From NCBI GenBank assembly GCA_951406725.2, contig OX597817.1, forward strand, positions 98,642,001 through 98,706,000: a DNA stretch of 64,000 bases, written 5' to 3'. This DNA comes from Octopus vulgaris (taxonomy: Eukaryota). Of the stretch, positions 5,590-62,032 are shown in pieces; position 1 is the first letter of the stretch; the number at the start of each line of letters is the position of its first letter. A program made the translations under genes and the position numbers. The notes under the pieces were generated by a model, which searched no databases, was not told the origin of the DNA, and worked only from the letters and a program-made list of their open reading frames with translations.

Positions 5590-5647
5590 TGCAGTACGAT
5601 CGTTTCATGTGACTCCATTTAATTGAACAATGCAATCATCAGCTGCA
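5590..5647 (-). ncRNA. Type I hammerhead ribozyme motif (stem II shortened)
   Basis: Minus strand reads TGCAG-CTGATGA-(29 nt)-GAAA-CGATCG-TA-CTGCA: stem I TGCAG/CTGCA, intact core, palindromic stem III, GUA cleavage triplet. Confidence 0.65.
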
Positions 5648-6659
5648 CAAATACATAGAATTTAATTAAATTAGACAGACACATTAGTATAATTTTTACC
5701 TAAAATCTCCAAGAGGATAAGGAGATAGACAAAGAACATGTTTTACCAACAACATCATAGTTGTAACTGAAATTTTTTTCAAGAAGACACTGACTGTTAC
5801 TAATTTTTCTGTTATTTAGTTTTATTACAGGGGGTGGGGGGTCAGTTTTAATTTATAGACCAGTTTATCAAATCTTGGTAGCTTGGGGTAGAGTTGGTGG
5901 AGTAGACAGACATTCTAAATGGTATAGTCATAAAATCAAGATTTATTTGAAGCAATGTCACAAGGTTTAGTAAGAGAATACTTAAAACAAGATGTTAGCT
6001 GATAATTAAGGGAACACCCACTAGCATTGCTAATGGGACAGGGGAAGTCTTATGATGTAGTACTACTATAAAACAATGATGCTATATTGTATACAGATAA
6101 AGTTAAGGGTTATTTAAAAGATTATTAAGAAGAATATTTATGAATACTTTTTAGTATATATCAAACTTCTACCACAATAGAGGGAGGAAAAGAAAATATA
6201 GAAATAGTTTAATATTTATACACTTAAATACTAACTTATCAGATATCTGTGAATATTGATTAAATGATATTTACTGGTATTAATGAAGGAGTATTTAGAT
6301 AAAAGAACATGCTAATTATACATTAAAAATTTTAGTCTAAGCAGATTTCTGTATTATAAGTAGTGAAATATATCAGCATAGCTTTATGAAATAGCTGAGT
6401 ATGAAATTTAAAGAGATACGAGACTTAGAATGATTTTATAAATAAATAAATAAAGGCTAATTTTAAAATAAAATAATATAAAATAATCATGGATAGAACA
6501 TCATAGAAAATTACTAATACTACGGTAAAGTATATTTAGCTTGTTAACACCAATAGAGAAGATTTTTGGAAAAAAGTTTAATAATTCAAAATACTGCACC
6601 CACAATAACTGGTCTGAGCATACTGCACCCATAATAACTGGCAATACAAAAATCATGGG

Positions 6660-9620: not shown

Positions 9621-9670
<50 letters not shown>
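6660..9670 (+). mobile_element. CR1-type LINE ORF2 (APE endonuclease + RT) with (ATT)n tail, several stops
   Basis: AETW, YRPP, GDFNFP, DLL, SDH endonuclease motifs; YLDFAKAF, GSVLGPLLF, YADD RT motifs; (TTA)n tail at ~9623-9668. Confidence 0.92.
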
Positions 9671-9671
<1 letters not shown>

Positions 9672-11679
9672 TAGACTAAAATTATATTTACTTGTTAAGA
9701 TAATATTTATAAAAGATATGGTATTGGCTAAAGGAATAATTAAGTTACGGAACAATTCTACTTTCAACTAATCTTTTTGTAAAATTAAGGGTTATATCAT
9801 AGGTTGAAGAAGTTATTATTATTACACCCTACATGATATTTATATTTTCTAATAGGTACTTATTTAGAAAGGTTATTTATATAAAAGTCTTTATAAATAC
9901 TAAGATCAGGAGGGTGTAGCTATTTGAGAAAAAGAAAAATCAAGTAATTTTTAAAAAGATCATCTCAAATAATGTTATCATACTGTATAAGGTTAAAAAA
10001 AAAATTTAGGGTAATCAAGAAGATTATTAAGAATGAGAATTTTAACAAACAGGATACCACTTTTTAAAAAATATATTTTGAGTATATACCAAATTCTTTT
10101 AACCCCAATAGAGGGAGGTAAAAGAAAATTGCAAAGGAATAGATTAATATTTATATACTTATTACTTATCTAAAATATTAATTTATTATAAGGTTTCTGT
10201 GGAGATTTATGAAATGGATTTAACTAATATTTAATAAGGGCAACTGAGGTTAAAGAACATGTCAACCAGTATTAACTTATATAAGCTTTAATCACTAGTA
10301 CCTAGTATTGACTAAAAACATTCATGTTGCATGGTATGCTATTTATGCATTGATTATAAAACTAAAAGGTATATTATAAGATTTAAAAACTTAAGATCAA
10401 TAAAATGTTACTTTCTATAATATTTGAAGGTAAAGACACAAGCTAATCGAAGTTGTATATGTACTTCATCATGATTTTAGTGATTAAGCTATTTTCACAT
10501 CCTTTTCTATGATGTTTCTACTCTACCTAATTGTTTTAATATTCTATAATTACCTTTATAAAAACCTAAATTGTTGTACCCCTATAAAGCCATACTTAGC
10601 TTATAAGAAGCAATACAGGTATCTTCAAAATTTTGAAATTAAAATGCCAAAATTAAACTGCCTAAATTAAGATTTAACTAAACTGTAATATAGTTGTTCT
10701 CTCACCTAAAGGGTAAATCTCCATGATAGCCTAATATTTTAACCTTAAACAAAAAAAATGACATATTGTTCAAAATAGTTTTAGTAATTAAGTTTTTTAT
10801 TCCTTTCTTATAATGTTCCATCCCCTTAATTTTGATATTTATATTTGTTTTAAATAGCCCCTCCAATTAAGTACTCCTAAGAAACTGTAATATTATTTAT
10901 TTATAGATTAACACAAATAACTTACGTAATCTATATTATTCCTCTTAATTTAATATTAGTATATGGTTAACTTGTACTTTTAACAAAAATTATCTTTTCA
11001 ACTAATACCGAGTTTCAGCCCTGATTATAGTAAACTTAATAAGCTAATATTCTAGCTCATAAATTACTATACATTTTCTGTATAAACTTACTATTAGAGT
11101 TAATAAGGTAAGAATATTTTCTTTTTTATTATGGTTTTTAGTGATTAGTCTATTTATTCCTTTTCCAAGATACTCTACCCTAACTGATAATTTTATTATT
11201 GTTGTTATTGTTATTTTTATGGCAACCTTAAATAAATCTAATCCTTGTACCCCTTATATAAGTTAATACTGGTATCTCCACAACCTAAAATTAGTTTCAA
11301 CTTTAATTAAATCAGTATATAGTTGACATGTTCTTTAACCTCAGTTGCCCTTATTAAATATTAGTTAAATCCATTTCATAAATCTCCACTGAAACCTTAT
11401 AATAAATTAATATTTTAGATAAGTAATAAGTATATAAATATTAATCTATTCCTTTGCAATTTTCTTTTACCTAGTCTATAAATTAAAACTGACCCCCCCC
11501 CCATAATAAAACTAAATAACTGAAAAATCAGTAACAGTCAGTGTCTTGAAAAAAATTTCAGTTACAACTATGATGTTGTTGGTGAAACATGTTCTTTGTC
11601 TATCTCCTTATCCTCTTGGAAATTTTAGGTAAAATTATACTTATGTGTCCTTCTAATTTAATCAAATTCTATGTATTTG

Positions 11680-11766
11680 TGCAGCTAAAGATTGCTCTAC
11701 ATTTTAAATCGATGTAATGAAATGATTGTTCAATTAAATGGAGTTGCATGAAACGATCGTACTGCA
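11680..11766 (+). ncRNA. Hammerhead ribozyme motif with mutated core (CTAAAGA) and long stem II
   Basis: TGCAG-CTAAAGA-ttgctctacattt...aaatggagttgcat-GAAA-CGATCG-TA-CTGCA; inverted partner of 5590-5647. Confidence 0.55.
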
Positions 11767-11899
11767 TTACCTCTGGATATCCTTGTTGCTTATTTTGATT
11801 TTAATCACCTCATTTTGAAATTGTATGGATAATACCATACTAAATTTTGGTGCCTCAACTTAAGTACGATATTCATCTGAAACTATATATATATATTAC

Positions 11900-12007
11900 C
11901 TTCCCACTGAGAATCTTGAAAGCTAAAGAATTCATATCTCTTGCATTGAAGGCATGTCGTAATGTAGTCATCTCGTACACACAGCAGCCTAATGCCCAAA
12001 CATCAGA
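11900..12007 (-). CDS. NEK4: NEK4-like kinase exon: SDVWALGCCVYEMTTLRHAFNARDMNSLAFKILSGK
   Basis: Lies inside ORF 11873-12073; ttgcAG/GTaat splice sites; 108 nt, phase 0 to 0; kinase subdomain IX. Confidence 0.93.
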
Positions 12008-12321
12008 CTGCAAAAAAGAAATTACAAATATAAAAATTAAATGGAAGTTAAATAACAGTTTGTCTGTATGCAACTACATGGTTAAAATACATGCATGGAT
12101 ACAAGAATAGGTTTTTAGAATATTTACTAGAATTAATGATCTTCCACAAACAACCTTGCCGAACTTGTGCCTCGGAGGGTAACTTTCTAGGTGCAATCCC
12201 ATGGTCATTCATGACCGAAGGGAGTTTCCTCCTCCTCAGTGAAGCTATATTTAAATTTACACAAGTTCTTTGGATTTACTGCATTGTGCATAAATAGATG
12301 TGGTTTAATTACAGACACTAA

Positions 12322-12516: not shown

Positions 12517-12744
12517 CTGCCTATTACAGAGACTACTATTACAGTTACTAACATTACTGACATAAACATTACTGGCATTAACATTACTGACGCTAATGTT
12601 AGTGATACAAACATTTAATACTATCATTACTCATCCTAACATTACCACTATGAACCTTACTGACACAAACAATAATACTAAAATTAAAGGCACCAACATG
12701 AGTCAGTATGCTTATATTGATGCTAATATTACTGATGCTAGTAA

Positions 12745-12960
12745 GATGGTAAGCTTGCAGAATCATTAGCATGCTGGGTGAAATGCTTAGCAGCATTTCA
12801 TCTGTCTTCACGTTCTAAGTTCAAATTCCACCAAGGTCAACTTTGCCTTTCATCTTTTCTGGGTTGATGACATAAGTACCAGTTGAGCACCGGGATCAAT
12901 GTAATTGACTTACTCATTGCCCCAAAATTGATAGCCTTGTACCAAAATTTGAAATCAATA
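12745..12960 (+). mobile_element. tRNA-derived SINE
   Basis: B-box-like gttcaaattcc, then the core gtcaactttgcctttcatc...taagtaccagttgagcac; another partial copy at ~19310-19455 (-). Confidence 0.65.
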
Positions 12961-13084
12961 TTACAGACACTAACATTAGTGACACTAATATTATTGGCAA
13001 TAACATTACTCAAAGTAACCATTCTGATAGTAGTATTATAGACACTGACATTACTGACATTAACATTATTGACACTAACATTAC

Positions 13085-13301
13085 CCCTTTAGCATTCAGA
13101 TTACTCTGTCAAAGGTAATGCTTATATATTCACATCATTTTGAATTAATCATTATTGTCCTGGCTTTGAGATTTCAATGATGTGATTATTTATTTTTAGA
13201 ATGACATTGTAAGGTAGGTATGAGAGACCAAATCTAGTTGGTTTGAACACAAAGCAAGTAGAAAATTTGGGAAGGATATGGCCAGGTTAAATGCTAAAGG
13301 G
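13085..13301. mobile_element. piggyBac-like MITE
   Basis: ccctttagcatt...aatgctaaaggg terminal inverted repeats; degenerate TTAA flanks; same family as 18731-18915. Confidence 0.6.
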
Positions 13302-13569
13302 ATAAAGACAAAAATATTATTGATGCTAACATTACATATACTAACATTACAAATATTAGCATAAGTGATACTGACATTAGTGATGTTAACATTTCTGACA
13401 GTTATATTACTAATACTAAAATTATTGATATTAACATGACTGCTTCTAACACTTATACACAATAAAATTACTGAAATTACTGACACTAACATCCCATACA
13501 TAACCAATGCTAACATTTTGGAAAAAAACATTACACATACTAATTTTACTAACAATGAACATCACTGAT

Positions 13570-16500: not shown

Positions 16501-17927
16501 TATAAGATACATTAACGAAAGTAGAAAAGGAGGAAAAAGAAGAAAAAAGGGTAACTACTGTGGAAATGTCATGATCAGAGAAAATGGATCTTTTCTAAAA
16601 GATGGACAGAATTTTCTACTTAACTAAATAATTTGAAACTTCGTATACTGGTCGAATGTGTCAAAAGAAAACATTAATTTCAATTAGTTTTTTTGAGAAA
16701 AATGTATTTTGTAACTTTTACGTAGTTTAATTCTTCAAATTTTAATCAATCGTATTCTCTGTTTTGAGCTCAATTCATTTGCTGCCGTGTTATTCATCCT
16801 TATCACTGTCTTCTGTGTTCTGTCTTCAAAGACTTCTCGCATGTTTATTTCAATGTCATCCCTGACTTACGGAATGATTACCTGTGTGTGTGTGTTTTTG
16901 TTGTGTATGTGTGTGCGTGTGTGTGTTTGTTGTGTGTGTGTGTGTGTTATTGTTGTGTATGTGTGTGCGTATGTGTGTTTGTTGTGTGTGTGTGTGTTAT
17001 TGTTGTGTATGTATGTGTCTGTGTGTGTTTGTTGTGTGTGTGTGTGTGTGTTTTTGTTGTGTATGTGTGCGTGTGTGTGTGTGTCTTTTTGTTGTGTATG
17101 TGTGTTTTTTTGTTGTGTATGTGTGCGTGAGTTGTGTATCTCTTAAATCGATGAATTTCGTCGCCCAATAAAAATATTAACGATATCAAAGTTCAAAAAA
17201 TATCGTTAATATTTTTATTGGACGACGAAATTCATCGATTTAAGAGATACACAACACACGCACACATACACAACAAAAAAAACACACGCACACATATACA
17301 CAACAAAAAGACACACACACACACATGCACACATACACAACAAAAACACACACACATACACAATAACACACACACACACAACACACACACACACATACAT
17401 ACACAACAATAACACACACACACATACACAACAATAACACACACACACACATACAACAAACACACACACGCACACACATACACAACAAAAACACGCATAC
17501 ACAGGTAATTGTTCCGTAAGTCAGGGATGACATTGAAATAAACATGCAAGAACCCTTTGAAGACAGAACACAGAAGACAGTGATAAGGATGAATAACACG
17601 GCAGCAAATGAATTGAGCTCAAAACAGAGAATACAATTGGTTAAAATTCGAAGAATTAAACTACGTAAAAGTTACAAAATACATTTTTCTCAAAAAAACT
17701 AATTGAAATTAATGTTTTCTTTTGACACATTCGACCAGTATACGAAGTTTCAAATTATTTAGTTAAGTAGAAAATTCTGTCCATCTTTTAGAAAAGATCC
17801 GAGAAAAATGCTAAAAAAATGCTAAATAAAATTTTAAACCTGCTATATGCTAGATCCAAAAATGTTCTGCTAAATGCTGAAAACAAATGCTAGATCTAGC
17901 ATAAAATATACTAAATTGGCAACCCTA
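13570..17927 (-). mobile_element. Full-length hAT DNA transposon with disrupted transposase (~13711-15790)
   Basis: TIRs CAGTGTTGCCAA / TTGGCAACCCTA; identical 8-bp TSD TCACTGAT (13562-13569, 17928-17935); N-terminal C2H2-like finger (CRYC..H..H), SRWLS motif and dimerisation motif (LPNSNAEV). Confidence 0.92.
16586..17800. mobile_element. 1.2-kb foldback/MITE (near-perfect palindrome, Mutator-like) nested in the hAT
   Basis: GGATCTTTTCTAAAAG...CTTTTAGAAAAGATCC; arms of ~600 bp including mirrored (GT)n/(CA)n tracts; short loop near 17187-17198; near-TSD gagaaaat / gagaaaaat. Confidence 0.88.
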
Positions 17928-18730
17928 TCACTGATACTAACATTACTTACACCAACATTAGTGGCACTAATTAGTGACGCTAACATTAAGAAAACTAATG
18001 ATACTGACAATTCTAACATTAAAGACACTAGAATTACATTAATATTAGTAATACTATAAATACAGATATTAACATTACTGATACCAACATCACTGACACT
18101 AAAATTATTATAGTAACATTACTCATACAAATATCATTGAGGTTTACATGAATAATACTAACATTACTGACATAAACATTATCACTAAAATTAATGACAT
18201 TAATTTAACTGCATTAGTGATCCTGACATTTCTGACTAATGTTACTGACACTGACATTCCTGTCATTAACATTAGTGACACTAACAATACTGATTCTAAC
18301 ATTGCCAACACTAACATTACAGATACTAACAACACTGATGCTAACACAAACATCTTAAAGTAAGTGATAACAACATTACAGTCACTAATGTAACATTAAT
18401 ATTCCTGACAATGACAGTACTAATATTACTGGCATAAATATTAGTAACACTCACATTGTGAACACTCATTGACAATAACATTAACATAAACACTAACATT
18501 ACTGACACAAAAATTACTGATATTAACATCATTCATACTAACATTACTGTTGCTAACATTCTTACACTAGCATTTTTTGATGCTAAGAAAACTGATTCCA
18601 GCATTATGAACAGAGACATCATTGTCAACAACATTACTGGTACTAATGTTACCAACCCTAACAGTACTTATTTTAACATTACAGATACTAAACAGTATCA
18701 TTCTAACACTAACATTGACAATAACTTTAA

Positions 18731-18915
18731 CCTTTTAGTGTTTAAACCGGCCACATCCGGCCAAAATATTCTACCTATTTTATGTTCAAACTAGTCAGAT
18801 ATGGTCATTCATAGCTATCTTATTGTGTCATTTTAAAAATAAACAATCACATCATTGAAATCTCAAAGCCATGAAATGATGCAAGATTAATTTTACAAAT
18901 CTGAATGCTAAAGGG
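18731..18915. mobile_element. piggyBac-like MITE
   Basis: TTAA|ccttttagtgttt...gaatgctaaaggg|TTAA. Confidence 0.7.
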
Positions 18916-19932
18916 TTAATGATTCTAACATTACTGATACTAAAATTAGTGACACTAATACTGCTTAAACTAATATTACTCACTAACATTACTGAAGCTC
19001 ACATTACTGAAACTAACATTTATGAAACAAATGTTACTAACATTATGCACACAAAGATTACTTACACGAAGATTACTTAATATTTTAAACATTAACATTA
19101 CTGATACAAACATTACAGATACTAACATTAATGATACAACTAATGTTGATACTATCATAATTGATACTATATTTAAATAAACATTAATGACACTAACAAT
19201 ACTGACACAAACATTACTAACATTAACGTTACTTATACTAGCATTACTAACATTAAAATTACTGACACTAACATTAGAGACACCAAAATTACTGAGACTA
19301 TAATTATTGATTCAAATATTCTCTCAAATCTTGGCACAAAGCCAGCAATTTCAGTGGGAGGGTGTTAGTCAATTATATCAACCCTAGTACTTGACTGGTA
19401 CTTTTGTTGATGCAGAAAAGATGAAAGGTAAAATTGGCCTTTGTAGGATTCAATTCTAATATTACTTACACTAACACTACTATATGAATATTACAGATAC
19501 TGACATTACTGCCATTACCATTAATAATGCCAACAATTCTGACAATAACATTACTGTTACCAACATTACCGAAATATTATTTTACCTACAATAACTTTAT
19601 TGAAGTAACATTATTAACATTAACATTACTTGCTAACTACTATTACTAACATTACTGACACTAACATTCCTGACATGGACATTATTATCACTAACATTAA
19701 TGATACTAACATTATTCATCTAATAACTGCTTCAAAAAGTGTCTATCCTACAAATATTTGCAAAATATATTTGACTCACAACAAAGCATACACACATGCA
19801 CACACACACACATGGACAGACAGAGACACAGAAAGATAGTGCAGGTAACAAATGGAATTAGCATGATGGTGCTGAGTCAAATTAAAAAGTTTGTTTTTCT
19901 TTTTCAAGCAATACTATACACATATCACCGAC

Positions 19933-27500: not shown

Positions 27501-27564
27501 CCTAGTGCTCTTATTTGATATGCACTGATATGTCACTGTTAACCTTCATCATCTTTTAATTTCC

Positions 27565-30500
27565 CGGGGTCGGGGGTGTGGGTATACTTCTTGCGGAGAA
27601 ATGGGTAGATAAGGTAATCGAGGTAGTCAGAGTAAGTGACAGAGTACTTAAAATTAGATTAGTCCTTCACCATAGGTCAGCTACCATCATCTCGGCATAT
27701 GCCCCTCAACCAGGGCTACCAGAAGGACAAAAAGACCAATTCTATGACACCCTATTGCGGACTACCTCATTGACAAATGACAGTGACCTTCTCTTCGTGG
27801 CAGGCGATTTCAATGGACATGTTGGACGACATGTCGGGGGCTTCCATGGCGTTCATGGAGGCTACGGTTTTGGCTCTCAAAATGAGGAGGGAACCAGGCT
27901 GCTGGAGTTCTGCGATGCAAATGACCTTATGGTCTGCAATACCAACTTCAGGAAACCCACCTCTCACCTAGTCACCTACTGTTCTGGCAGACACACTAGC
28001 CAGATTGACTACATCCTTGCCAGAAAAAGGGAAAGAGGGCTGCTTATAAATGCCAAAACCTTTCCAGGCGAAAAATGTACTCCTCAACATAGATTAGTAG
28101 TTAGCGACTTCAGGATCAGAGCTAAATGGTTTCCCAGAAGAAAACCTGCTTGGAGGAGAAGGGTCTGGAAGCTTAAAGATCCTGCAAATGGACAGAGATT
28201 TAGAGACATACTACTCGAAGCCTTTGACGAAATAGAAGGGGATATAGCTTCACTTAATGCGGAAGACAACTGGAGATTTCTACGGGACAATCTGCTGACA
28301 GCCACTGACCAGATCTGTAGATAGAGCAAAGTACCATCTAGACTCAGAGTAATGTGGTGGTGGAACACTGTGGTTGACAGAGCTATTAGACAAAAGAGAC
28401 AGGCTTGGAAGGACTGGAAGAACGGTGGTAGCAGGGAATTGTATCAGACAGCCAGAAGGGAAGCTAGGAGACAGGTTTATTTAGCCAGAGAGGAAGCGGA
28501 TAAGAAAAAATTTGCCAATGTTCTGAGCCGTGAGGATGAAAGACTTGAGGTATTTCGTGTTGCAAGACAGTGTGTGAGAGAGAATTGTGATGTGGTAGGA
28601 GAGAAATGTGTCCGCATAGATGATGGTTCACTTGCCGAATGTCAACCGAACAGAGGGACCACCTATCCGAGTTGAAAATTCTTTGGTAGTTAAAGCAATT
28701 AGAAGCATGAAGACAGGGAAAGCCCCAGGCCCATCAGGAATTACTGCAGAGATGCTCAAAATATCTGGCAGTGTTGGCCATAACCTAGTCACCCATATAG
28801 TCAATCAGGTGATACACGAAGGAGTCATACCCAATGACTGGTGTAGCAGCATACTAGTCAACTGCTACAAAGGTAAAGGTGACGCCCTAGATACAAATAA
28901 TTACAGAGGAATCAAGCTGTTGGATCAGGTAATGAAGGTTACGGAGAGGGTCATAGCCCAACTAATTAGGGAGAGAGTTAGTTTAGATGAGATGCAGTTT
29001 GGGTTCGTGCCAGGAAAAGTACCACTGATGCTATATTCCTGGTAAGGCAGATGCAGGAGAAATACCTAGCCAAAGATAAGCCCCTGTACCTGGCTTTCGT
29101 TGACATGGAGAAAGCCTTTGATAGGGTCCCCCGATCCCTTATCTGGTGGTCAATGAGGAAACTAGGGATAGATGAATGGCTGGTGAGGGCTGTGCAAGCC
29201 ATGTACAGAGATGCCGTAAGTAAGGTTAGGTTGGCAACATGTACACAGAAGAATTCAAAGTAGAGGTTGGGGTCCACCAGGGTTCAGTACTCAGCCCCCT
29301 CCTTTTTATCATAGTCCTCCAGGCAATTACGGAGGAATTCAAGACAGGTTGCCCCTGGGAGCTCCTCTATGCTGACGACCTTGCTCTAATTGCTGAGTCA
29401 CTATCAGAATTGGAGGAGAAGTTCCAGGTGTGGAAGGAGGGTTTAGAATCGAGGGGCCTTAGAGTCAACCTAGCTAAAACCAAAGTACTAATAAGTAGGA
29501 AGGTAGACAATCCACAAATGTCTTCAGGAAGATGGCCCTGCTCGATCTGTAGAAAAGGTGTAGGTAGAAACTCTATAAGATGTACCCAGTGTAAGCTATG
29601 GACACATAAGAGGTGCAGCAATGTCAAAGGTAGGCTAACTGGGAAGATAGTTTTTGTATGTGGCAGATGCTCGGGAGCATTAACCTCCGAAAATCTGCAG
29701 AAAACAACTTCCGTCATTTTCCAGGGGGAAAAACTAGAAGTAGTTGATAGCTTCCGTTATCTAGGTGACCAAGTCAGTAGTGGGGGTGGGTGCATTGAAT
29801 AAGAATAGCCTGGGCAAAGTTTAGGGAGCTCTTACCTCTGCTGGTGACTAAAGGCCTCTCACTCAGAGTAAAAGGCAGACTGTATGATGCATGTGTACGA
29901 ACAGCCATGCTACATGGCAGTGAAACATGGGCCGTGACTGCTGAGGACATGCATAAGCTCACGAGGAATGAAGCCAGTATGCTCCGATGGATGTGTAATG
30001 TCAGTGTACATACTCGACAGAGCGTTAGTACCTTGAGAGAAATGTTGTACCTGAGAAGCATCAGTTGTGGTGTGCAAGAAAGACGATTGTGCTGGTATGG
30101 TCATGTGGCGAGAATGGACAAAGATAGGTGTGTGAAAAGGTGCCAATCCCGAGCAGTTGAGGGAACCCGTGGAAGAGGTAGACCCAGGAAAACCTGGGAC
30201 GAGGTAGTGAAGCACGACCTTCGAACTTTAGGCCTCACTGAGGAAATGACCAGCGACCGTGACCTTTGGAAATATGTTGTACGTGAGAAGACCAGGTAGG
30301 ACAAGTGAGCCCAGCCCACTTATGCATGCCTTTCCTCCCTTGGACACAAAGACCTGTTGAGGCAAGCGAAGCCGATATCGAACCTCATCCGACGACAGGC
30401 ACCCATGCCAACCCCTCTGCTTGTGAAGACATGTTGGAGCAAGTGAAATCGAAATCGAAATCGAAATCGGAATCGAAATTGAACCAATCCTATGACTGGC

Positions 30501-30853
30501 ACCCGGCAGATGCCAGGACCCCTGGACTGGTGGTACATAAAAAGCACTATCTGAATCGTGGCCGATGCCAGCGCTGCCTCGACTGGCTTCCGTGCCGGTG
30601 GCACGTAAAATGCACCAATCTGACCGTGGCCATTGCCAGCCTCGCCTGGCACCTGTGCGGGTGGCACGTAAAAAGCACTCACTACACTCACGGAGTGGTT
30701 GGTGTTAGGAAGGGCATCCAGCTGTAGAAACATTGCCAGATAAGACTGGAGCTTGGTGCAGCCTTCTGGCTTCCCAGATCCCCGGTCGAACCGTCCAACC
30801 CATGCTAGCATGGAGAACGGACGTTAAACGATGATGATGATGATGATGATGAT
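27565..30853 (+). mobile_element. Young, 5'-truncated RTE LINE (APE + RT with PHD insert + 3' UTR repeats + (GAT)n)
   Basis: AYAPQ, GDFNGHVG, QIDYIL; HQGSVLSPLLF, YADD; RGRGRPRKTW; few disablements; small internal deletion near 28635 relative to the copy at 226. Confidence 0.95.
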
Positions 30854-34619: not shown

Positions 34620-35230
34620 TACACTCACATTTATATAATAAATTTTATCTTTATACCCAGCTTCAGCTAGGGAATTATTATAGAACCTTTCATTATTCTT
34701 TAATATTTCTTCATTAGTGGTCAGTCTAGATATATGAAGAGAAATATTGTTAATGATAGAAGCCGTAATATTTTTAGGATGATTCGAGTTTTTATCTATG
34801 CATTTAAGGTTATCATTGGGTATGTGGTAGAAAGTCAACCTTACTATACTCATTTTCAATGGAAATAGGCAGAACTAGATCTTAAAATGATTTAAAGAGA
34901 GTTTTTTCCATAATTTTTCTTTATTTACATTACTAGATTTATATACAGTAAAGAAAGCAACAACCCTATATAATCCACCCCTCGCCCCTGCCCATTTGTG
35001 CAAATTCACTGTTTATACATTTTCAAATATATATTCCCATTAAGTCCATTACATGAGTAGAATCACTGGAGGCCATGGTAATGTTGAACTGATCAGCTCT
35101 ATCTTTCCTTACCCACTATTTTCCTTCAAATTCAATTATGGATTTTTTAGCAACCTGTATATTTACTTCTTCCTTAGATAAGCTTAAGTCTTTTCTCATT
35201 GTAAATATTAACACTTAAAGTACCCTCACT
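34620..35230 (-). mobile_element. Penelope-like (Neptune-type) reverse transcriptase fragment
   Basis: WVRK..FNITMASSD..DLMGIYIL resembles the PLE FDVTMGS motif; SNHPKNI..ISRL..NEE..AGY is the thumb/linker. Confidence 0.75.
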
Positions 35231-35320: not shown

Positions 35321-35351
<31 letters not shown>

Positions 35352-35352
<1 letters not shown>

Positions 35353-36710: not shown

Positions 36711-37633
36711 ATAATCAAAATAAGCAACAAGGATATCCAAAGGTAGTGCAGTACAATTGTTTCATGCTACTTCATTTAATTAAACAATGTAAGTATTACA
36801 TCAGTTTTAAAATGTAGAGCAATTTTCAGCCACATATGGAATTTTTTAATGAAATTGACAATATTCATTTTTATACTTATTCCATTTGCCAACATTACAA
36901 AGAGGGTAGGTATATAGACAGAGAGGTGAATCTCATCAATAGAAACATGGTAGTAAATGACCTTTACTCACGGGTAGATTTCTTATCATTGAATTTACTT
37001 TGTTATTTAGATTTACTATTGGGAAGGGGGTTTTATTCTATTAAGTTCAGTGGAGACAACCAAGAATTTATCTATTTATAGGAAGAGGCAGTTTAAGTGA
37101 CAGAGCCATAAATCCAACTCTTTTTTTTAGCTAAAGTTAGTAGGCTGAACCTAGTGGGGTAGGGAGAATAGAAACTTCCAATACCTTAACCATTTAACAG
37201 TCATAATCCTACTTGTGATTTGAAATAAATATCTTTTAGATAGTTTTTTCCAAATGATTCTAATAAATTTTAGGAGAGTTATAGAAATCATTTCATATTT
37301 ATAAAAATATATACATCAAATTATTATTAATATAGATTTATAGTTAGTTAGTAAATAGTAATTTATTTGTATTAATGAGTTAAATTAAAGGAATATGCTA
37401 GACATATCATTTATTTCCTGCATGTTAATGATTTTAGAATGTACTTCACTTGAGCTATAAAATAGATAGTGAGTTATAAAGTAGCATGAAATGATTGTAC
37501 TGCACTACATCTGGATATCCTTGTTGCTTATTTTGATTATAATCACCCCATTTGATTTATATGGATAATACCATACCAGATTCTGGTGCAGTATAATCGT
37601 TTCATGCTACTTTATAACTCACTATCTACTTTT
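36711..37633. mobile_element. Short AT-rich inverted-repeat element of the same hammerhead-bearing family as 5555-11860
   Basis: 36711-36772 is inverted to 37479-37540; shared aaataagcaacaaggatatcc terminus and ggataataccatac tail. Confidence 0.65.
36747..36834 (-). ncRNA. Degenerate hammerhead motif
   Basis: TGTGG-CTGAAAA-long stem II-GAAA-CAATTG-TA-CTGCA; stem III remains palindromic. Confidence 0.5.
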
Positions 37634-39648: not shown

Positions 39649-39649
39649 T

Positions 39650-40175
39650 ATTATTAGCTTAATATATATACGAGCTTTTAAGCAAACTGACCCAGAATGG
39701 AAAGATCTGCAAACAGATCTGACTTGTTTGGAGAATTTGTTGCAATTGCTTCCTCCAGAATCATATCCCAATGATGATCATATTCGTTGCCAAAAAATCA
39801 TGTAAAAAAATTATCGAAAACATAGGAATCCAAAATTTCAAGATCGCAGGTCCAGATTCGACCCAAAATTTTTTTAATTTACTCACAGAATTAGCCTTTA
39901 GATTATAAAAATTATTTTCGTACAAAAAAAAAAAAATTTGTTGCAAAAAGTCACGTAAAAAAAAATCACCGAAAACAGTTACAGTAAGGAAAACTTGGGA
40001 ATCCAAAATTTCAGGATTGTGGATCCAGATTCGGCCCAGAATGTTTTTAATTTACTTATGAAGTTAGCCTGGTTCCAAAATGGTATGATATGGTATAAAT
40101 GGTAGAAGCTAAGGCCTCTAAGAGTAAAATTGAAAAAGTGTGACACGCTGACATTCACATTTATTACATTAGATA
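39650..40175 (-). repeat. Unclassified repeat with ~170-bp internal tandem duplication (possibly Helitron-derived)
   Basis: 39800-39897 resembles 39950-40070; the minus strand begins A|TCTAATGTAATAAA. Confidence 0.35.
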
Positions 40176-40221
40176 TATAAATATACCTTATAATCCAAAT
40201 AATAATACAAAGAAATCCTTA

Positions 40222-40370
40222 GTACATCTTTAATGATACATTACAACTGTTTCTGTACCAACTCTGCTTACAATGCTAATTTTCGCAAAAATTTGAAGAG
40301 AAAATTTATGTAACATTTGCAGTTTTAGACATTAGAGTGGCACTTCATCAAATTTGCATCAAAGGTGCAC
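40222..40370 (-). ncRNA. Hammerhead motif with very long stem II, core C-to-T mutated
   Basis: tgatgcaaat-TTGATGA-agtgccactct...agagttggtaca-GAAA-CAGTTG-TA-atgtatca; stem I tgatgca/tgtatca; stem II base gtgcca-ctct / agag-tggtac. Confidence 0.55.
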
Positions 40371-40432
40371 TCATATATATGAATATGTATGTATATATGT
40401 ATGTATGTATATATATATATGTATGTGTATAT

Positions 40433-41580: not shown

Positions 41581-42481
41581 TATATATATATTTATCATCA
41601 TCATCGTTTAATGTCTGCTTTCCATGCTAGCATGGGTTGGACGATTTGACTGGCGAACCAGATGAAGAAGACAAAACTATTGAAACTATATTTACATGGT
41701 GACATGGTAATGAAATAGACAGAATAATGAAAAGAACTAATAAGGGGTTTATGATCTGCGCAGAAATAGAAGAGTAGATGAACGAGGTTGAAAAGACAAA
41801 ACTTCTTATCTGAGCATCTTCTGAGATTCGTATCCTTCGGCAGGGGTATTAAAATTGAGTAGGGGAATCTGAGTGTGTGTGCTAGTTGTTATCTTGAAGA
41901 ACAGATGAGAGTCTGCAGGTGCTAAATCTGGCAAATAGAGCAGAGGCAGAAGCGATATCATTCTTTATGTACCTACATGCACACTCTCCATACCCTCACA
42001 TATGTATCATAGCTCCCACACCACAACAATTTCACTCTGCATCACTTGCTGCAGTCACCTCTTCCCCATCTCTAAACATCTCCCCTCACACTCTTATGAA
42101 ACATCCAACTATCCCCTCTGTACCACTTAACATTCCTCCCATTGTACCTTATAGGTATGTTCCTATGCATCTCCAACACTATTTATTTCTCTCTCTTTCT
42201 TCCTCCCTGTCTGTCTCAGTATCTTTTTCTCTATCACCATGTATACTTCCTCTCCCTACTGGGATAGCTAAGTATCTCCTTTATAGTAAGTTACCTGTCT
42301 CTATCCCTCTATTACACTTTAAACTCTCAACTGGCTGGCACAAGTCACCTCCCTCAATACCATTCAGTCTCCCGGTTGAGGGGTTTTGGTTTGCAAGTTG
42401 CTTAGCAACCCTACATGTGCTGGTGCCATGTAAAAAGCACTAGTGCTGGTACCACATAAATAGCGCTGAATCCTCCTCCTC

Positions 42482-44400
42482 CATCATCATCATCGTTTAA
42501 CGTCCGTTTTCCGCGCTAGCACAGGCTGGACAGTTCGACCGGGGTCCGGGAAGCCAGGGGCTGCTCCAGGCTCCAGTCTGATCTGGCAGAGTTTCTAAGG
42601 CTGGATGCCCTTCCTAACGCCAACCACTCCACGAGTGTAGTGGGTGCTTTTTACGTGCCACCTGCACAGGTGCCAGGGGGGTCCGGCATCGGCCACGATC
42701 GGTTGGAGCTTTTAACGTGCCACCGGCACGGAAGCCAGCCAAGGCGGCGCTGGCAACGGCCACGTTCGGATGGTGCTTTTTATGTGCCACCGGCACAGAA
42801 GCCAGTCGGGGCGGCACTGGCATCGGCCATGTTCGGATGTTGCTTTTTATGTGCCACCGGCACAGAAGCCAGTCGGGTCAGCGCTGGCTACGGCCACGTT
42901 CAGATGGTGCTTTTTATGTGCCACCGGCACAGGTATCACAACTACTATTTCCATTGATATTTATTTCGATGTTCATGTTCATGTACTTGACTCAACAGGT
43001 CTCCTCAAGCACAGCGGAGACGTTCTGGGATCCAGGGTACTTTGAATGGGCAGGGGCTATGTGGAACTGGTGCAGGAAGCAGCCCGGGTCTTTGCAGTCA
43101 CAGCATATGTCCAGTGATCTCGGTCCTTCGCCATTGCCTCAGTGAGGCCCAACGCTCTGAGGTCATGCTTGACTACCTCATCCCATGTCTTCCTGGGTCT
43201 ACCTCTTCCCCTGATATCTTCAACTGTTTGGGAGTGGCACTTCTTCACACATCTCTCCTCATCCATCCGCAGTACATGACCATACCATCGCAAGCGTCGC
43301 TCTTGCACACCACATCTGATGCTTCTCATATCCAGCATTTCTCTCAGGGTGCTTACACTCTGTCGTGCATGCACACTGACATTACACATCCAGCGGATCA
43401 TGCTAGCTTCATTTCTTTCAAGTCTACGCATGTCCTCTGCAGTCACAGCCCATGTTTCCCTACCATGAAGCATGGCAGTTCGCACACATGCATCATACAA
43501 TCTACCTTTCACTCTGAGCGAGAGACCCTTTGTCGCCAGTAGGGGTAGGAGCTTTCTAAACTTTGCCCAGGCTATTCATATTCTAGTGGTGATATTCTCT
43601 GAGCATCCACCTCCACTACTAACTTGGTCACCCAGGTAGCGGAAACTATCAACTACTTCTAGTTTCTCCCCCTGGAGTGTGATGGAATCTGTTTTCTGAG
43701 TGTCTGTGGTGTCTATTGTCCCTGTGCATCTGCCGCACATGAAAGCTATCTTATCAGTTAATTTCCCTTTAATGTTGCTGCACCTCTTATGCATCCATAG
43801 CTTACATTGGGTGCATCTTATGGAGTTTCTACCTACACCTTTCCTACAGATCGAGCAGGGCCACCTGCCCAAGGGGGTGTGTGCTGAGTTCGCCTTTCTG
43901 CTTACTATAACTTTGGTCTTTGCTACATTTACTCTAACCCTTGCTTCCACACCCGAAATTTCTTTTCTAGTTCCGGTAGTGATTCTGCTATGAGAGCCAG
44001 GTCATCAGCATAGAGGAGCTCCCAGGGGCATCCTGTTTTGAATTCCTCTGTTATTGCCTGGAGGACTATGATGAATAAAAGGGGACTGAGGGCTGAGCCT
44101 TGGTGTACACCTACTTCTACCCGGAATTCTTCACTATATTCATTGCTGACAGCCTCTCTGTATAGAGCCTGTACAGCCCTTATTAGCCATTCGTCAATCT
44201 CCATTTTCCGCATCAACCACCAGATAAGGGAACGGGGAACCCTGTCAAAGGCTTTCTCCAAGTCCACAAAAGCTATGTAGAGGGGTTTATCTTTAGCTAG
44301 GTACTTCTCCTGCAGTTGCCAGACCAGGAATATAGCATCAGTGGTGCTTCTACCCGGCACAAAACTGAACTGCATCTCATCTAAGCAAATTCTCTCCCTA
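42482..44400 (-). mobile_element. 5'-truncated RTE LINE
   Basis: ORFs 43929-44375, 43576-43950 and 43057-43512; very similar to 35352-36710 in the opposite orientation. Confidence 0.93.
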
Positions 44401-48789: not shown

Positions 48790-50422
48790 TCGTTGAAGAA
48801 TTCCGGGTAGAGGATGGGGTCCACTAAGGTTCAGTCCTCAGCCCCCTCTTATTCATCAGAGTCCTCCAGGCCTTAACAGAGGAATTCAAGATAGGATGCC
48901 CCTGGGAGCTTCTCTATGCTGATGACCTTACTCTAATAGCTGAGTCACTATCAGAACTAGAGGAGTTTCAGGTGTGGCAGCAGGGATTAGAATCGAAGGG
49001 CCTTAGCAAAAACCAAAGTCTTAATAAGAAGGAAGGCAGACAAACCACAAGTCCCTTCCGGTAGATGGAAAAGGCATAGGTAGAAACTCCATAAGATGTA
49101 CCCAATGTAAGCTATGGACACATAAGAGGTGCAGCAATATCAAAGGAAGGCTAACTGGGAAGATAGTTTTTGTATGTGGAAAATACTCAGGGGCAATAAA
49201 CACTGAAAATGTGCAGAAAACAGGTTCCATCTCATTCCAGGGAGAAAAACTACAAGTAGTTGATAACTCCATTACCTAGTAGTTAAGTTAGTAGCAGGAG
49301 TGGTTGCTCTGAGAGTGAAGCTGCTAGAATAGGAATAGCCTGGGCAAAGTTCAAAGAGCTCCTACCTCTGCTGGTGATAAAGAGCCTCTTGCTCAGAGTA
49401 AATGATGCATGTGTGCGAACAGCCATGCTACATGGCAGTGAAGCATGGGCCGTGACTGCTGAGGACATGCGTAAGCTTGTAAGGAATGAAGCTAGTATGC
49501 TCCACTGGATGTGTAATGTCAGTGTACATACACGACAAAGTGTAAGCACCTTGAGAGAAGAGTTAGATATAAAAAGCATCAGATGTGGTGTGCAAGAAAG
49601 ACAACTGTGCTGGTATGGTCATGTGTTGTGTATGGATTGGGACAGCTGTGTGGAAAGTGTCACACCCTAGCAGTTGAGGGAACCTGTGGAAGAGGTAGAC
49701 CCAGGAAGACCTGGGATGAGATGGTGAAGCACAACCTTCAAATGTTGGGCCTCGCCGAGGTGATGACAAGTGAGCAAGACCTTTGGAGATATGCTATGCT
49801 TGAGAAAACCCGGCAAGCCAAGTGAGACTGTAACCGTGACCTATGCCAGTGCAGCATACCCAGCATATTCAATCATTGGGCAATAAACTGCACTTGCAAA
49901 GACCTGTTGAGGCAAGTAAATTCGTTGTTGTGGCTGATGACAGTACCACCTGATTGGCACTTGTGCCGGTGGCATGTAAAAAGCACCATTCAAGTGTAGT
50001 CGATGACAATGCTACCTGACTGGTCCTGTGCCGGTGACACGTAAAAAGCACCATTTGAGTGTGGTCGCTGCCAGTGCCACCTGACTGGTCCTGTGCCAGT
50101 GGCATGTAAAAAGCACCATTTGAACGTGGTCATTGCCAGTGCCGCCTGACTGGCTCCTGTGCTGGTGGTACATGAAAAGCACCATTGAAGTATAGCCGAT
50201 GCCAGTACTGCCTGACTGGCCCTCATGCCAGTGGCATGTAAAAAGCACCCACTACACTCTCGGAGTGGTTGGTGTTAGGAAGGGCATCCAGTTGTAGAAA
50301 CATTGCCAGATCGAATTGGTGCCTGGTGCAGCCTTCTGGCTTTCCAGAATCTCAGTCAAACTGTCCAACCCATGCCAAGCATGGAAAGCGGATGTTAAAC
50401 AACAATGGTGATGGTGATGATA
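48790..50422 (+). mobile_element. Degraded 5'-truncated RTE LINE
   Basis: RT C-terminal ORFs at 49374 and 49583; ~59-bp 3' repeats at 49920-50250. Confidence 0.9.
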
Positions 50423-51026
50423 AGGAAAGGGTTATGAATTACCAGGGAAGGGCAATGAAGGAAACAAAAACATGCACAGCCATCATTGAGGAGGCAGTAA
50501 GGGGGTGGGAAGTAAAAGAGTTAAAACAAGAGCAAATGAAGACACCCAAGAATATATATGTTAACTAAAATGACAATCAACATATATGATAATTTGTGAG
50601 AAACAGCTATTTTATTTCCATATACTAGAACTGACGGTTACTTTGGCATTACAGGAAAATATCATTGCTTGCATGACAAATTACTATTATTAGTCAAGGA
50701 TCAAGCTAGAAAGCAGCATAATTATTGAGATTATGTTATGAAAAAGAATTTAGAATTATAATGTCTTTCACTTCTCTGCTCACCAGAATAAAATGATAAC
50801 AATTAACCATTAAAACAAGACATGTATGTAAAGAAAAAAAAATTAAATTTGTCTAACAATAAATCTTTTGTTTTTTCATCTGGACCTTATGTGGGTAACC
50901 TTTTAAAAGTTTAAATACTTCATGTACAAAAATAATCTCCAAAAAACTCATCTAGACGCAAAAAGCTATATCAAAAACATGTCTGAACACATGCACACAC
51001 ACATACGAGGAGGATAAAAGCTTTTA

Positions 51027-51185
<159 letters not shown>

Positions 51186-55297: not shown

Positions 55298-55830
55298 GCC
55301 GTGTCCGTTGCCAGCCTCGGCTGGCCCCCGTGCCGGTGACACGTAAAAGCACCATCCGCTCGTGGCCGTTTGCCAGCTCTGTCTGGCAACCGTGTCGGTG
55401 GCACGTAAAAGCACCATCTGTACGCGTCCGTTGCCAGCCTCGGCTGGCCCCCGTGCCGGTGACACGTAAAAGCACCGTCCGCTCGTGGCCGTTTGCCAGC
55501 TCTGTCTGGCAACCGTGTCGGTGGCACGTAAAAGCACCATCCGTTCGTGTCCGTTGCCAGCATCGCCTGGCCCCGTGCCGGTGACACGTAAAAGCACCAT
55601 CCGTTTGTGGCCGTTCGCCAGCTCTGTCTGGCACCTGTGCAGGTGGCACGTAAAAAACACCCACTACACTCGCGGAGTGGTTGGCGTTAGGAAGGGCATC
55701 CAGCCGTAGAAACACTGCCAGATCTGACTGGGCCTGACGAAGCCTTCCAGCTTCACAGACCCCAGTTGACCCGTCCAACCCATGCTAGCATGGAAAACGG
55801 ACGCTAAACGATGATGATGATGATGATGAT
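55298..55830 (+). mobile_element. RTE 3' UTR-only insertion (tandem ~59-bp units + (GAT)n)
   Basis: Six or seven gtgccggtg(a/g)cacgtaaaagcacc units, then the RTE terminus. Confidence 0.88.
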
Positions 55831-56351: not shown

Positions 56352-56388
56352 ATTATATATTTATATATATAATTATACATATTGACAC

Positions 56389-56419
<31 letters not shown>

Positions 56420-56429
56420 CTATACGAAA

Positions 56430-58310: not shown

Positions 58311-58318
58311 ATATATAA

Positions 58319-58376
<58 letters not shown>

Positions 58377-58772
58377 ATATATATATATCAATAATTCAGT
58401 GATTGTTTCTTATCAGGAACAAAATGTTTAATAGGACTGCTATAGAAGTGCTCAATTGAATGAGACAAATATATCAAACTATAGTTGCAGAACAAACAAT
58501 TACAGGGTCATCCACGTAACATTTCATATCTCGAACATTTAATCATAGAATATACATGTATAATATCATGGAAGATGAAACATAACTCATCTGTACAAGC
58601 ATATAAGAAAGTGCGAGAAAAATGTGTGAATACAGTTCATCACGGTTAAAAGTTAATACTTTAGCGATTAAGAAATATATATTATTTTAAAAAACATTAC
58701 AACACCTAGAATAATAAATACGTAAAAATATAAAGTATAAAGTAACATATAAATATATAGGTATATAAATAA

Positions 58773-58817
<45 letters not shown>

Positions 58818-58976
58818 GCATATAAATAAGTAATATATACGTTAAGATAAAAGTTCATCGTTTGGAAAATTTTTTATAAAATACTTTTCAGATAAGGGAA
58901 ACCTATAGTTATAAGCCAGTGTTCAAGCAAAAAAGAGGAAAAAACCATATTTACATTCCCTATGGCCATTTCAGGG

Positions 58977-61930
58977 TGTTATGCGTGTAGTTGTTGTATC
59001 AGGAAAGACAACCAGTTGAAAGCCATTGTTATGTTTATCATGTTTATTGACGTTACTTACATGCACGACCCATTACAGTGTAGTGATACATTGTTTACTT
59101 AACACACAGTTTGTATTGTTCACTAACAAATAGTGCCAAGAGTATGGAGTAGTTTGGCATTCGCAAACACACAGATATGAATGTGTAACATCCCTTCTTC
59201 TTGAAAAAAAAAGGGGTCTCTTGGCAGTGAAGACAACTATGAGTAGTCTCCCTTGCTCTATGGATTGTCATCATGTCTTTTCTTTTTCTTTAGCGGTATC
59301 GAACCGGTGGCAGAATGTTCTTTCTCCATCTGGTGGATCTTCTGCTTCGCACCTGTGTCTGAGGTGTGTTGTACACGTTTTCCTCGGTAGCTCTGGTGTT
59401 GGGCGGATGTGGGCCCTGTTGCGTCTCAGCTGCCTACCAGATTCTGTTTCTATTATATTTGATCTTGGAGTTTCAGCTCTACTGACAACCTTTGCTGGGA
59501 TCCATGTTTTAGTTATGGGATCTTGAGTATGCACATGTTATCCTCCAAGCATCTCAGGTAAATATTGTGCATGTTTGTTGTGATGCCTCTGTGCTCGTTC
59601 TTGAGTGGCTGCTAGCTTTGCCCTTGTTTCTTTCTGGTCAATAGGAGGTTGGATCTTAGTTGGCAGGGTAGTTTTATACTTCCTGCCATTCAGCAATTCT
59701 GCTGGGGATTTCATATTAGCTCTCAGTGGAGTCGCTCGTAGGGACATAAGTGCCAGGTGTGGGTCTTCCCTAGTCTTCCGGCATTTGACTAGTGTTCTCT
59801 TCACTGTCTGCACCTGTCTTTGGGGCAGTGTGGAGATGAAGTTTTAATATTGAACCCATACTCATCGGCTAGCTTTTAGAATTCTTGTGACGTGAACTGG
59901 ATTCCATTGTCACATATGATCTGCTCTGGTATTCCTTGCTCTGCTAGGAGTCCTCGGGCCACTGTAGTGATTGTTTTGGCTGTCAGGTCTTTCACTTTTC
60001 TCACAATTGGAAATTTGGAGTAGTAGCAGGCCATTATTAAATACCATTCTTAGCCTTCTGTGAATAGATCTACTCCAATAGTTTGCCATGGCCTTCTTGG
60101 GATGTCACCAGATAACATTTCCTCCTTTGTTGTGAGGTTTTGTACTTTTCTATGTCTTTCTTTTGTTGTGAGGTTTTGTACTTTTCTATGTCTTTGTACA
60201 TGCGCTTATTGGTTGTCACATTTACAATCTGGTGGACCTTTCTGCTTAGTCCTTCCATCTCCTTTTTGTTTGTGATTGGTGGTTGGTCTTTGATAGGCAT
60301 ATCACTGTTAATCCTGCTTGGAGCTGCTTTCACTTCAGCATTGACCGACACAATATTTAACCTCCTGCAGGTATCGAGTCCAAGAATTGCTGGGCCTTCT
60401 GTTCTTGTCACATAAAATGTACACTCGATTGATTTCCCTTTGTGTGTCCCCTTTATTGTTGTTTTCCCCAGTTGTGGGATTCTGGTACCTCCGTACGCAG
60501 TGAGGACCACATCACTTGGTGTGAGGATTCCTTTCCTGACCCTATCCTCTTCTGTCATATTTTCTGGGAACATCTTCTTGTATAAGCCGACAGGCAAGAT
60601 ATCACTCTGGGCCCCAGTGTCTATCTTCAGCCTTAAGTCTATGTTTGTTCTTTTCCTTCCGGCCTTCTTTTGAATTTTTATCATCGTGTATGCCTCATCT
60701 TCTTTCCTTCGGTCGTCCTTTCCCTTCTCATGCACATTTATTATGCCGATTGCTAAGAATTCCTCCTCTGAGGTGCTTTGTTCCTGTTGTTGTGCATGTA
60801 TATCCCTTCTATTTCTGCTCCTCTTTGAAACTTGGGGCTTGTATCTCTGGGATTTTGTTATCCTACACATTTTTTTTCCAGTGGTTCAGTTTTCCACATC
60901 CTTTGCAGTGTGTACCGAATGCAGGACATTTTTTCCAGTCATTAAATTCATGCTCTGTACCACAGTACCGGCATGTTCTTTGGTTTTGGGTTTGTGTCCT
61001 GTCCTTATATACAGTATCTACACTGCTATCTAGTGGGCTTGCTTGTAAGCTTAGTGAGGCCATTTGTTTGGTAGTGGCTTCAAATGCTCTTGCAGTGTCT
61101 ACTGCTTCTACCAACTGGAGAGCGTCCTTACCTATGAGGGATTTTGCACTTCTTTGTGGGCACACCCCCATATTAATTGGTCTACAATTCTCTCCTCCCT
61201 GTCTTTGAATTTGCATTTCTCTGCAACATTTTTCAGTCTTGACAGGAAATTGTCTATTGTTTCTTGTGGGGCTTGTTTCAGGCCCTGGAATTCGTATCTC
61301 TGAATTCTGTGGTTTGACCTGGGCTCTAGGTGCCTCTCAAATTTATCAAGAAGTGTATCTGGGTCATTGCAGTCTGATTCTGACATATCCCAGCTATTGT
61401 ATAGGTCTATTCCTTTATTACCTGACCATAAAAGGATGTAACTTACCTTTTCATCGTCAGTTGTGCCTTTCAGGAAACTTTTGAAAGCTAGTTGAGCTTT
61501 TTGTTTGAATTTTTTAAATTCTTCAACGACATCACTAGAATCCCAGTTCATAATCGGATGCAGATTCATCTGTACGGCGACGGGGGTCGCCATCTTGGAT
61601 TCTTTGTTTATGTTGTCCGAAGCGTAGCGATGTTTTGTTTGCTAATTCCACGTTCGTTGTGTTCCTGTTTTGTTTTAAAAGCACAATTCCGGATTAATTG
61701 TTTACCGCTGCCACCATGTTGTGCGTGTAGTTGTTGTATTGGGAAAGACAACCAGTTGAAAACCATTGTTATGTTTATCGTGTTTATTGACGTTACTTAC
61801 ATGCACGACCCATTACAGTGTAGTGATACATTGTTTACTTAACACACAGTTTGTATTGTTCACTAACAAATAGTGCCAAGAGTATGGAGTAGTTTGGCAT
61901 TCGCAAACACACAGATATGAATGTGTAACA
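58977..61930 (-). mobile_element. Gypsy-like LTR retrotransposon, internally deleted (gag, protease and integrase C-part; RT/RNase H missing)
   Basis: Two 214-bp TG..CA LTRs (58977-59190, 61717-61930); 5-bp TSD CAGGG; PBS TGGTGGCAGCGG (tRNA-Leu-like); PPT aagaagaaggga; CRYCG..H..C knuckles; IDTGAQ protease; SPAELLNGR integrase. Confidence 0.95.
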
Positions 61931-62032
61931 CAGGGGTACATTACTGTATTTAATGCACGAGGGTGCATCACAATAATAACTCCTTCGTCAGGGGAAAAAA
62001 TAGAGAGACAGACATCACGTACCAGGGCGAGA

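Follow-up and report, generated by a model that had tools for sequence, protein, structure and literature searches.

The closest described systems are the hammerhead ribozymes of Penelope-like elements (PLEs) of the Hydra clade (Craig et al. 2021, PMC8557442). These hammerheads are of type I and lie in the 3' untranslated region (UTR) behind a GIY-YIG endonuclease that lacks the CCHH motif, and they frequently have a U.U pair closing helix II, a palindromic helix III of 6-8 nt, (TA)n targets and inverted truncated copies. We found the same traits in a stretch of 64,000 nt from Octopus vulgaris (contig OX597817.1, positions 98,642,001 to 98,706,000, forward strand), hereafter the window, which contains five hammerhead loci (loci 1-5) that we group into families A and B. 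However, helix II comprises at most ~26 nt in the 26 Hydra-clade rows of file S2 of that paper, a short-helix octopus family included, whereas it is 53-91 nt long here. Furthermore, family A has no recognisable open reading frame (ORF), unlike the Hydra-clade elements described there. Our analysis indicates that the window probably harbours damaged type I hammerheads at the 3' ends of two PLE lineages, likely both of the Hydra clade, with a predicted helix II of 53-91 nt instead of the usual 10-25 nt.

Other known systems resemble the window copies in part. The minimal hammerheads of metazoan PLEs (Cervera and De la Pena 2014, PMC4209133) also have a short helix I and a palindromic loop III, are predicted to cleave as dimers and occur mostly as single dispersed copies of truncated elements; however, the window forms fail the descriptor used there (stem II of 3-7 bp, loop of 3-10 nt), and the conserved G10.1-C11.1 pair is absent from the window, where helix II is closed by U.U in family A and by A-U at locus 5. 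A long loop II has precedent because two Selaginella PLE-X rows are already tabulated (PMC8557442 file S2), with 9+35+9 nt in PLE-X1_sMoe and a loop of 29 nt in PLE-X1_sTam, which gives a total length comparable to that in the window. Unlike the elements described here, these come from a plant, lack an endonuclease, target ribosomal DNA and do not belong to the Hydra clade, and the authors flag their structure as noncanonical. In viral hammerheads, a 'long helix II' means 6-8 bp (PMC13725137). Animal retrozymes of the type without long terminal repeats (non-LTR; PMC7229834; bioRxiv 10.64898/2026.07.22.740005) share the type I hammerhead, the non-coding nature and a proposed dependence on PLEs, and one axolotl retrozyme family resembles family A in having U.U at the helix II base; however, retrozymes are short tandem arrays with circular RNA, whereas the copies here are single and their body exceeds 1 kb. 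Neptune-clade PLEs share the C-terminal GIY-YIG endonuclease, the terminal-repeat hammerhead and microsatellite targets, but the window fragments lack the Neptune CCHH. None of the titles and abstract openings searched concerned long-helix hammerheads in animal Penelope elements, and Lunse et al. 2017, Arkhipova et al. 2017 and supplements may contain some.

All five loci lie where an initial annotation of this DNA had placed them, and each has stem I and the core as well as GAAA, a palindrome of 6 nt and TA (Table 1). The annotation was also right in describing them as type I hammerheads with a palindromic helix III in a Penelope-like context, and in noting that helix II greatly exceeds the length usual in related elements. 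The CUGANGA core is intact at loci 1 and 5 only; the other three loci carry one core change each. Stem I is predicted to have 5 bp at loci 1, 2, 3 and 5, and at locus 4 a helix I of 16-17 bp with bulges is predicted besides the 91-nt helix II. For the helix III palindrome we computed a self-duplex of 8 bp and -10.0 kcal/mol at loci 1 and 2 and of -10.3 kcal/mol at locus 5; it is weak at loci 3 and 4 (-4.2 and -1.2 kcal/mol, from slices that were one letter off). We additionally detected a partial sixth copy absent from the annotation, which spans 37419-37590 (+) and has a short inverted duplicate at 37576-37632. Judged from their sequences, the window motifs are real but damaged type I hammerheads.

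That these motifs are chance matches in AT-rich repeat DNA is scarcely credible, as this is already contradicted for loci 1, 2, 3 and 5 by the consensus of public contigs (see below), by descriptors and by a profile. The profile, built from 37 independent Hydra-clade hammerheads, scored loci 1-3 at 40.5, 36.9 and 34.1 bits, compared to 21.7 bits for the best of 60 shuffled windows. A strict descriptor is satisfied by locus 5 when the empty site is restored and by 2 of 500 shuffles. With a relaxed descriptor (one core mismatch, palindromic helix III) we found 3 sites against a null mean of 0.19, and 0 of 100 shuffles reached 3. Locus 4 satisfies only the relaxed descriptor and is the weakest of the five loci, and both locus 4 and the sixth copy are weak when taken singly. 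A chance origin would also fit the loose pattern, which is not enriched (9 matches versus 4.7 expected; 9 were reached in 11 of 100 shuffles), and the lack of a hammerhead match in an Rfam search of the window. The Rfam negative is uninformative, however, because ordinary Hydra-clade hammerheads were likewise missed at 20 of 20 control loci. A further hammerhead-like candidate at 50530-50615 (+), with a middle part of 57 nt, was found with the loosest descriptor only (null mean 1.3; z -1.4); it does not exceed chance and was dropped.

The initial annotation had given stem II a range of ~30-105 nt, which needs revision: we measured 29, 58, 59, 91 and 53 nt at loci 1-5. The 29 nt of locus 1 do not represent a separate architecture because the 5' arm of this copy was removed by an internal deletion, which occurred at a short direct repeat. 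For helix II, hairpins are predicted with 21 bp at locus 5 (z -5.2, 1 of 500 shuffles), 22 bp at locus 3 (z -3.5, 1 of 500) and 27 bp at locus 4 (z -1.8, 21 of 500); those of loci 1, 2 and 6 (the sixth copy, z 0.0) are no better than shuffles. The majority version of family A is predicted to form 21 bp (z -1.5 to -2.0). Between loci 2 and 3, all 6 apical-loop positions differ compared to 5 of the 53 other helix II columns (Fisher p 1e-5), and this concentration of change in the loop fits a constrained stem.

To put these lengths into context, we used 84 Hydra-clade control loci, namely the best 80 of 355 metagenome matches and four from genome contigs, allowing a helix II of up to 150 nt; this sample leans to relatives of the protein P0129, and the window's own lineage lies outside it. 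A hammerhead was found behind the endonuclease in 53 controls and was not found in 28, and three miss the end of the endonuclease. The best-match helix II has 10-25 nt in all 53 control hammerheads (43 distinct), one control locus having a lower-scoring alternative of 130 nt. When 16 of the 28 hammerhead-less controls were rechecked, four more short forms and no long form appeared. Two hammerheads were present in 7 of 37 control loci, as terminal repeats would predict. Among the controls, we also observed a locus (L044) whose hammerhead downstream of the endonuclease has the core change U4 -> C, and four Hydra-clade Penelope elements (L081-L084) within records of bacterial metagenome-assembled genomes, which are probably animal DNA binned together with the bacteria.

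The hammerheads do not fall into three unrelated families, as had been proposed, but into two lineages. Loci 1-3 are 85-88% identical to each other and form one family, to which the sixth copy and, distantly, locus 4 belong; locus 5 represents family B. When loci 3 and 4 were compared with the core excluded, their similarity was reached in 10 of 2000 shuffles for helix II and in 2 of 2000 for the downstream part, whereas locus 5 showed no kinship to family A in the same comparison. Two lineages are thus counted instead of three because locus 4 is related to family A outside the core. The terminal segments of loci 1 and 2 share 287 identities with 14 mismatches and 36 gap columns; family A bodies are ~75% identical between copies whereas their terminal segments reach 95% in aligned columns. 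Next to locus 2, the inverted body part matches 11322-11472 over 151 nt (150 of 151 identical). We also observed that family A has two 3' ends, at ~11800 and ~11885, and the ~85 nt between them exceed the tail of 30-40 bp described for Penelope-like elements.

To obtain a majority sequence for family A, contigs of four public runs from three organisms were placed on 11440-11880 (5880, 6293, 3797 and 84 contigs); their depth is not taken as copy number. Position 11687, where locus 2 deviates, is G in 94.8, 99.9, 99.2 and 100% of the depth in the four runs, which restores CUGANGA. The majority core of family A is therefore that of a hammerhead, and not a consensus without the core, which the initial annotation had named as the outcome that would speak against its reading. 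The free core position N7 is variable among the contigs. Among the 40 listed of the 76 rows of the contig comparison, none falls within 11749-11800, which contains GAAA, helix III, the cleavage triplet and stem I', and the whole motif is bridged by at least four of the contigs listed with only 3-11 gap letters. Loose contig ends before 11725 (141, 147, 102 and 7 contigs) carry on with the long helix's 5' arm; in each of the four runs, those at 11799-11800 consist of (TA)n. No claim of expression or editing is drawn from the longest contig of run X15, possibly an RNA run, as several of its letter differences recur in single contigs of DNA runs. Viral contigs contained neither the family A pattern nor a Hydra relative.

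At locus 5, the earlier reconstruction holds: an LTR element with a 5-bp target duplication splits the hammerhead. The LTR parts of this element are identical at 209 of 214 positions of their alignment (~98%). The insertion has kept an otherwise intact ribozyme sequence, in two pieces. The core lies in sense 220 nt past the stop of the endonuclease, within the range of the Hydra-clade controls (63-524 nt), and the 3' end of the element is near 58840-58815 and is followed by (TA)n. The adjoining inverted copy of the same element is interrupted at ~62430-62625 by a short insert that presumably resembles a transfer RNA-derived short interspersed nuclear element. The non-coding nature that the annotation had suggested thus does not apply to locus 5, because it lies 220 nt behind an endonuclease gene and hence in the 3' UTR of a coding copy; it is plausible for family A, where we found no ORF signal.

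The annotation had attributed the reverse transcriptase (RT) and endonuclease fragments to Neptune-type elements, but they show Hydra-clade features instead. The endonuclease at 62639-62989 has CxxC and CxH around E and N and no CCHH, a combination that characterises the Hydra clade (PMC8557442). Its closest full-length relative, P0003, shares 54% identity with it, is 806 aa long and contains RWR, DKT and CxCx5C; the corresponding RWK, DKT and CxCx5C region lies outside the truncated window copies and was read in P0003. Compared by eye with the published alignment, the window fragments match the Hydra rows and not the Neptune rows, and they do not show the Neptune marks (CCHH and a CX2-5CxxC linker). 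A word-indexed protein search with the window endonuclease gave no match. Loci 1, 2, 4 and 5 are flanked by (TA)n, and inverted truncated segments are present at loci 2, 5 and 6. The letters flanking helix II of family A equal the majority line of 37 Hydra-clade hammerheads (an alignment that is out of register at its 3' end), of which 20 have the U.U closing. By these motifs, both lineages likely belong to the Hydra clade. For family A, the tie is indirect and would follow from ribozyme context and insertion pattern, that is, from helix II flanks as in the control majority, (TA)n ends and inverted segments.

How the hammerheads might have worked in active elements can be sketched from known PLEs. 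Monomers of such hammerheads fail to cleave and their dimers do so weakly (PMC4209133), a Poseidon hammerhead cleaves only with the protein of the element and was dispensable for insertion in vitro (PMC11167929), and hammerheads with a U.U closing and a very short stem II can be active (PMC3088659). In the window elements, cleavage after the UA triplet would occur only when two copies in a tandem transcript pair via the palindromic helix III, and the element's protein may assist the cutting. The long helix II would most likely be a tolerated outgrowth whose stem base keeps the junction placed, while the usual docking of loop I with loop II would be out of reach. The family B hammerhead is part of the 3' UTR of an endonuclease-coding element. 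Family A would likely be a very abundant non-autonomous partner that is mobilised in trans, borrowing RT and endonuclease of the Hydra clade and inserting at (TA)n.

Alternatives to this scenario concern both the nature of family A and the role of helix II. Family A could belong to an autonomous PLE, of which it would be either a long 3' UTR or the remains of an ORF, the coding part lying beyond the truncated copies. We regard this as possible but on the unlikely side: no family A copy here is free of truncation or interruption, Penelope insertions mostly lack their 5' part (bioRxiv 10.64898/2026.07.22.740005) and protein searches are insensitive on decayed AT-rich DNA, but control UTRs reach the core within 524 nt at most, and a body of at least 1.2 kb contiguous plus 0.45 kb inverted sequence gave no Pfam, Hydra hidden Markov model (HMM) or frameshift-aware match, while an RT control in these searches scored 74 versus a null of 15. 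Neither the body of locus 1 nor that of locus 2 shows codon periodicity (p 0.11 and 0.20; 0 of 2000 for a coding control), and numerous gaps between the two have lengths that are not multiples of three. Two body segments ~1 bit above a null of 12 shuffles in the frameshift-aware alignment were rejected, ORF and periodicity searches gave no support for a decayed RT on the opposite strand, and a word-indexed protein search with one frame of the body found no match. An ORF-less family with a type I hammerhead might instead be a non-LTR retrozyme, whose short tandem units are cut and joined into circular RNA, the more so as retrozymes are proposed to stem from terminal repeats of Penelope (bioRxiv 10.64898/2026.07.22.740005). 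This is improbable given that no tandem array with a period of up to 500 covers any hammerhead locus of the window, that the copies are single and (TA)n-ended with inverted truncated segments and that none of the 15 joints listed of 33 is head-to-tail.

With regard to helix II, the long hairpin could be a selected functional part, for example a site of RT binding or priming or a scaffold that replaces tertiary docking and enables cutting as a monomer. Several features would agree with such a function: both lineages of this genome have long hairpins although they are unrelated, changes cluster in the apical loop, locus 4 has a long helix I as well, and initiation of RT in a terminal-repeat stem-loop is reported for another PLE (PMC11167929). 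Nevertheless, we consider it doubtful: 10-25 nt suffice in the 53 control hammerheads, the length in the window ranges from 53 to 91 nt, and no two-sided compensatory change in helix II was found among the window copies. It is still somewhat less likely that two independent PLE families of one animal lineage grew a helix II of 50-90 nt and that one of them, non-autonomous, very abundant and ~2 kb in size, is a parasite of Hydra-clade retrotransposons with a selected hairpin that binds RT or serves as a catalytic scaffold in place of loop-loop docking.

Returning to the reading that we prefer, damaged hammerheads with a long helix II at the ends of two PLE lineages, several results weigh against it or limit it. 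Family B is known from one copy, no endonuclease was found for family A and no ORF ties family A to the Hydra clade. Loci 4 and 5 are outside the top 10 of the profile test, probably since training had fixed C and G as the outer letters of the helix III insert and had tied stem I to a form free of bulges. The z-scores of the whole motif are -1.1 to +0.1 for loci 1-4, and the monomer's minimum-energy fold is more stable than the hammerhead fold, by 2.2 kcal/mol for the family A majority version and by 4.3 kcal/mol for locus 5. RNAalifold, run on two full copies, returned a fold other than the hammerhead. The changes seen in helix II are one-sided with a variable loop, and there are two full copies only. 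The contrast between loop and stem could reflect one replacement event, and the loop was picked after the alignment had been viewed. Lastly, two CpG deaminations can account for the way in which the palindrome differs between loci 2 and 3, so that this difference does not demonstrate covariation.

Every copy within the window bears a lesion and no two copies are in tandem. The window copies, located within or next to a host kinase gene, are thus relics that most likely have lost their activity; locus 1 might retain trace activity, its core being intact.

Table 1. Features of the hammerhead-bearing elements in the window (positions count from the first letter of the window; clade names follow the motif-based assignment)
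Feature	Positions	Strand	Description
Locus 1	5590..5647	-	Family A hammerhead; intact core; helix II 5' arm deleted, 29 nt remaining
Locus 2	11680..11766	+	Family A hammerhead; helix II 58 nt; G5 -> A
Locus 3	36747..36834	-	Hammerhead of a family A subfamily; helix II 59 nt; G8 -> A
Locus 4	40219..40371	-	Distant relative of family A; helix II 91 nt; C3 -> U; preceded by (TA)n
Locus 5, 5' part	61931..61996	-	Family B: stem I, intact core, most of helix II, first target-site copy
Locus 5, 3' part	58956..58976	-	Second target-site copy, GAAA, palindrome, cleavage triplet, stem I'
Partial sixth copy	37419..37632	+	Family A 3' half; 3' arm of helix II differs; 5' half is decayed
Family A terminal segment around locus 1	5553..5863	-	Ends in (TA)n
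Family A body upstream of locus 1	5864..6620	-	AT-rich, no recognisable ORF; cut off by a long interspersed nuclear element (LINE)
Inverted family A body part beside locus 2	9670..10266	-	
Family A body upstream of locus 2	10270..11472	+	No recognisable ORF
Family A terminal segment with locus 2	11473..11885	+	Followed by (TA)n
Terminal segment upstream of locus 3	36835..37040	-	~70% identical to the locus 2 segment
LTR retrotransposon inside locus 5	58977..61930	-	gag-like fragment, Retrotrans_gag E 2.5e-4
Hydra-clade endonuclease end and 3' UTR leading to locus 5	62033..62346	-	Stop at 62211
Inverted 5'-truncated copy of the same element	62338..63209	+	Linker end, endonuclease 62639-62989, UTR
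Decayed Hydra-clade RT/thumb fragment	34620..35180	-	tblastn to P0003 E 1.6e-17; HMM; joined to no hammerhead

The host gene encodes a NEK-type kinase on the (-) strand (2241-51150), with an open frame at 2241-2900 and exon-like pieces near 51100, 19990, 11900-12010 and 3660, of which the one at 11900 resembles NEK1 (E 6.8e-10). The kinase exons have loci 1-4 and the sixth copy between them, and locus 5 lies upstream of the first piece found. Loci 1, 3 and 4 are in kinase introns in sense, and locus 2 is antisense and ends ~15 nt from exon 11900-12010. The window contains further repeats. One LINE family, which we take to be RTE-like, is present in many copies with tandem repeats of 62-67 nt near the 3' end (27560-30850, 35340-36710, 37700-39650, 42480-44400, 48790-50420 and 55300-55830). 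An inverted repeat of 447 nt (91%) with CA/TG-rich arrays at 16586-17800 resembles a miniature inverted-repeat transposable element or a fold-back element, and degenerate minisatellite arrays of 15 nt are found at 12519-13543 and 17925-19753.

Engineered hammerheads tolerate inserts in helix II, and the association of hammerheads with Penelope ends is already known; the degree of surprise is thus moderate, and what appears to be new is the predicted long helix II in a Hydra-clade context. Hammerhead counts in animal genomes rest on descriptors that limit helix II to ~26 nt, which long-armed forms would escape. If such forms are abundant in some lineages, these counts and statements that an element has no hammerhead would be underestimates. 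With this variant, nature would also offer a way to ask whether loop-loop docking is required by Penelope hammerheads or whether a dimer and help from a protein suffice. The Hydra clade has been little studied, and family A may be a non-autonomous element that partners it.

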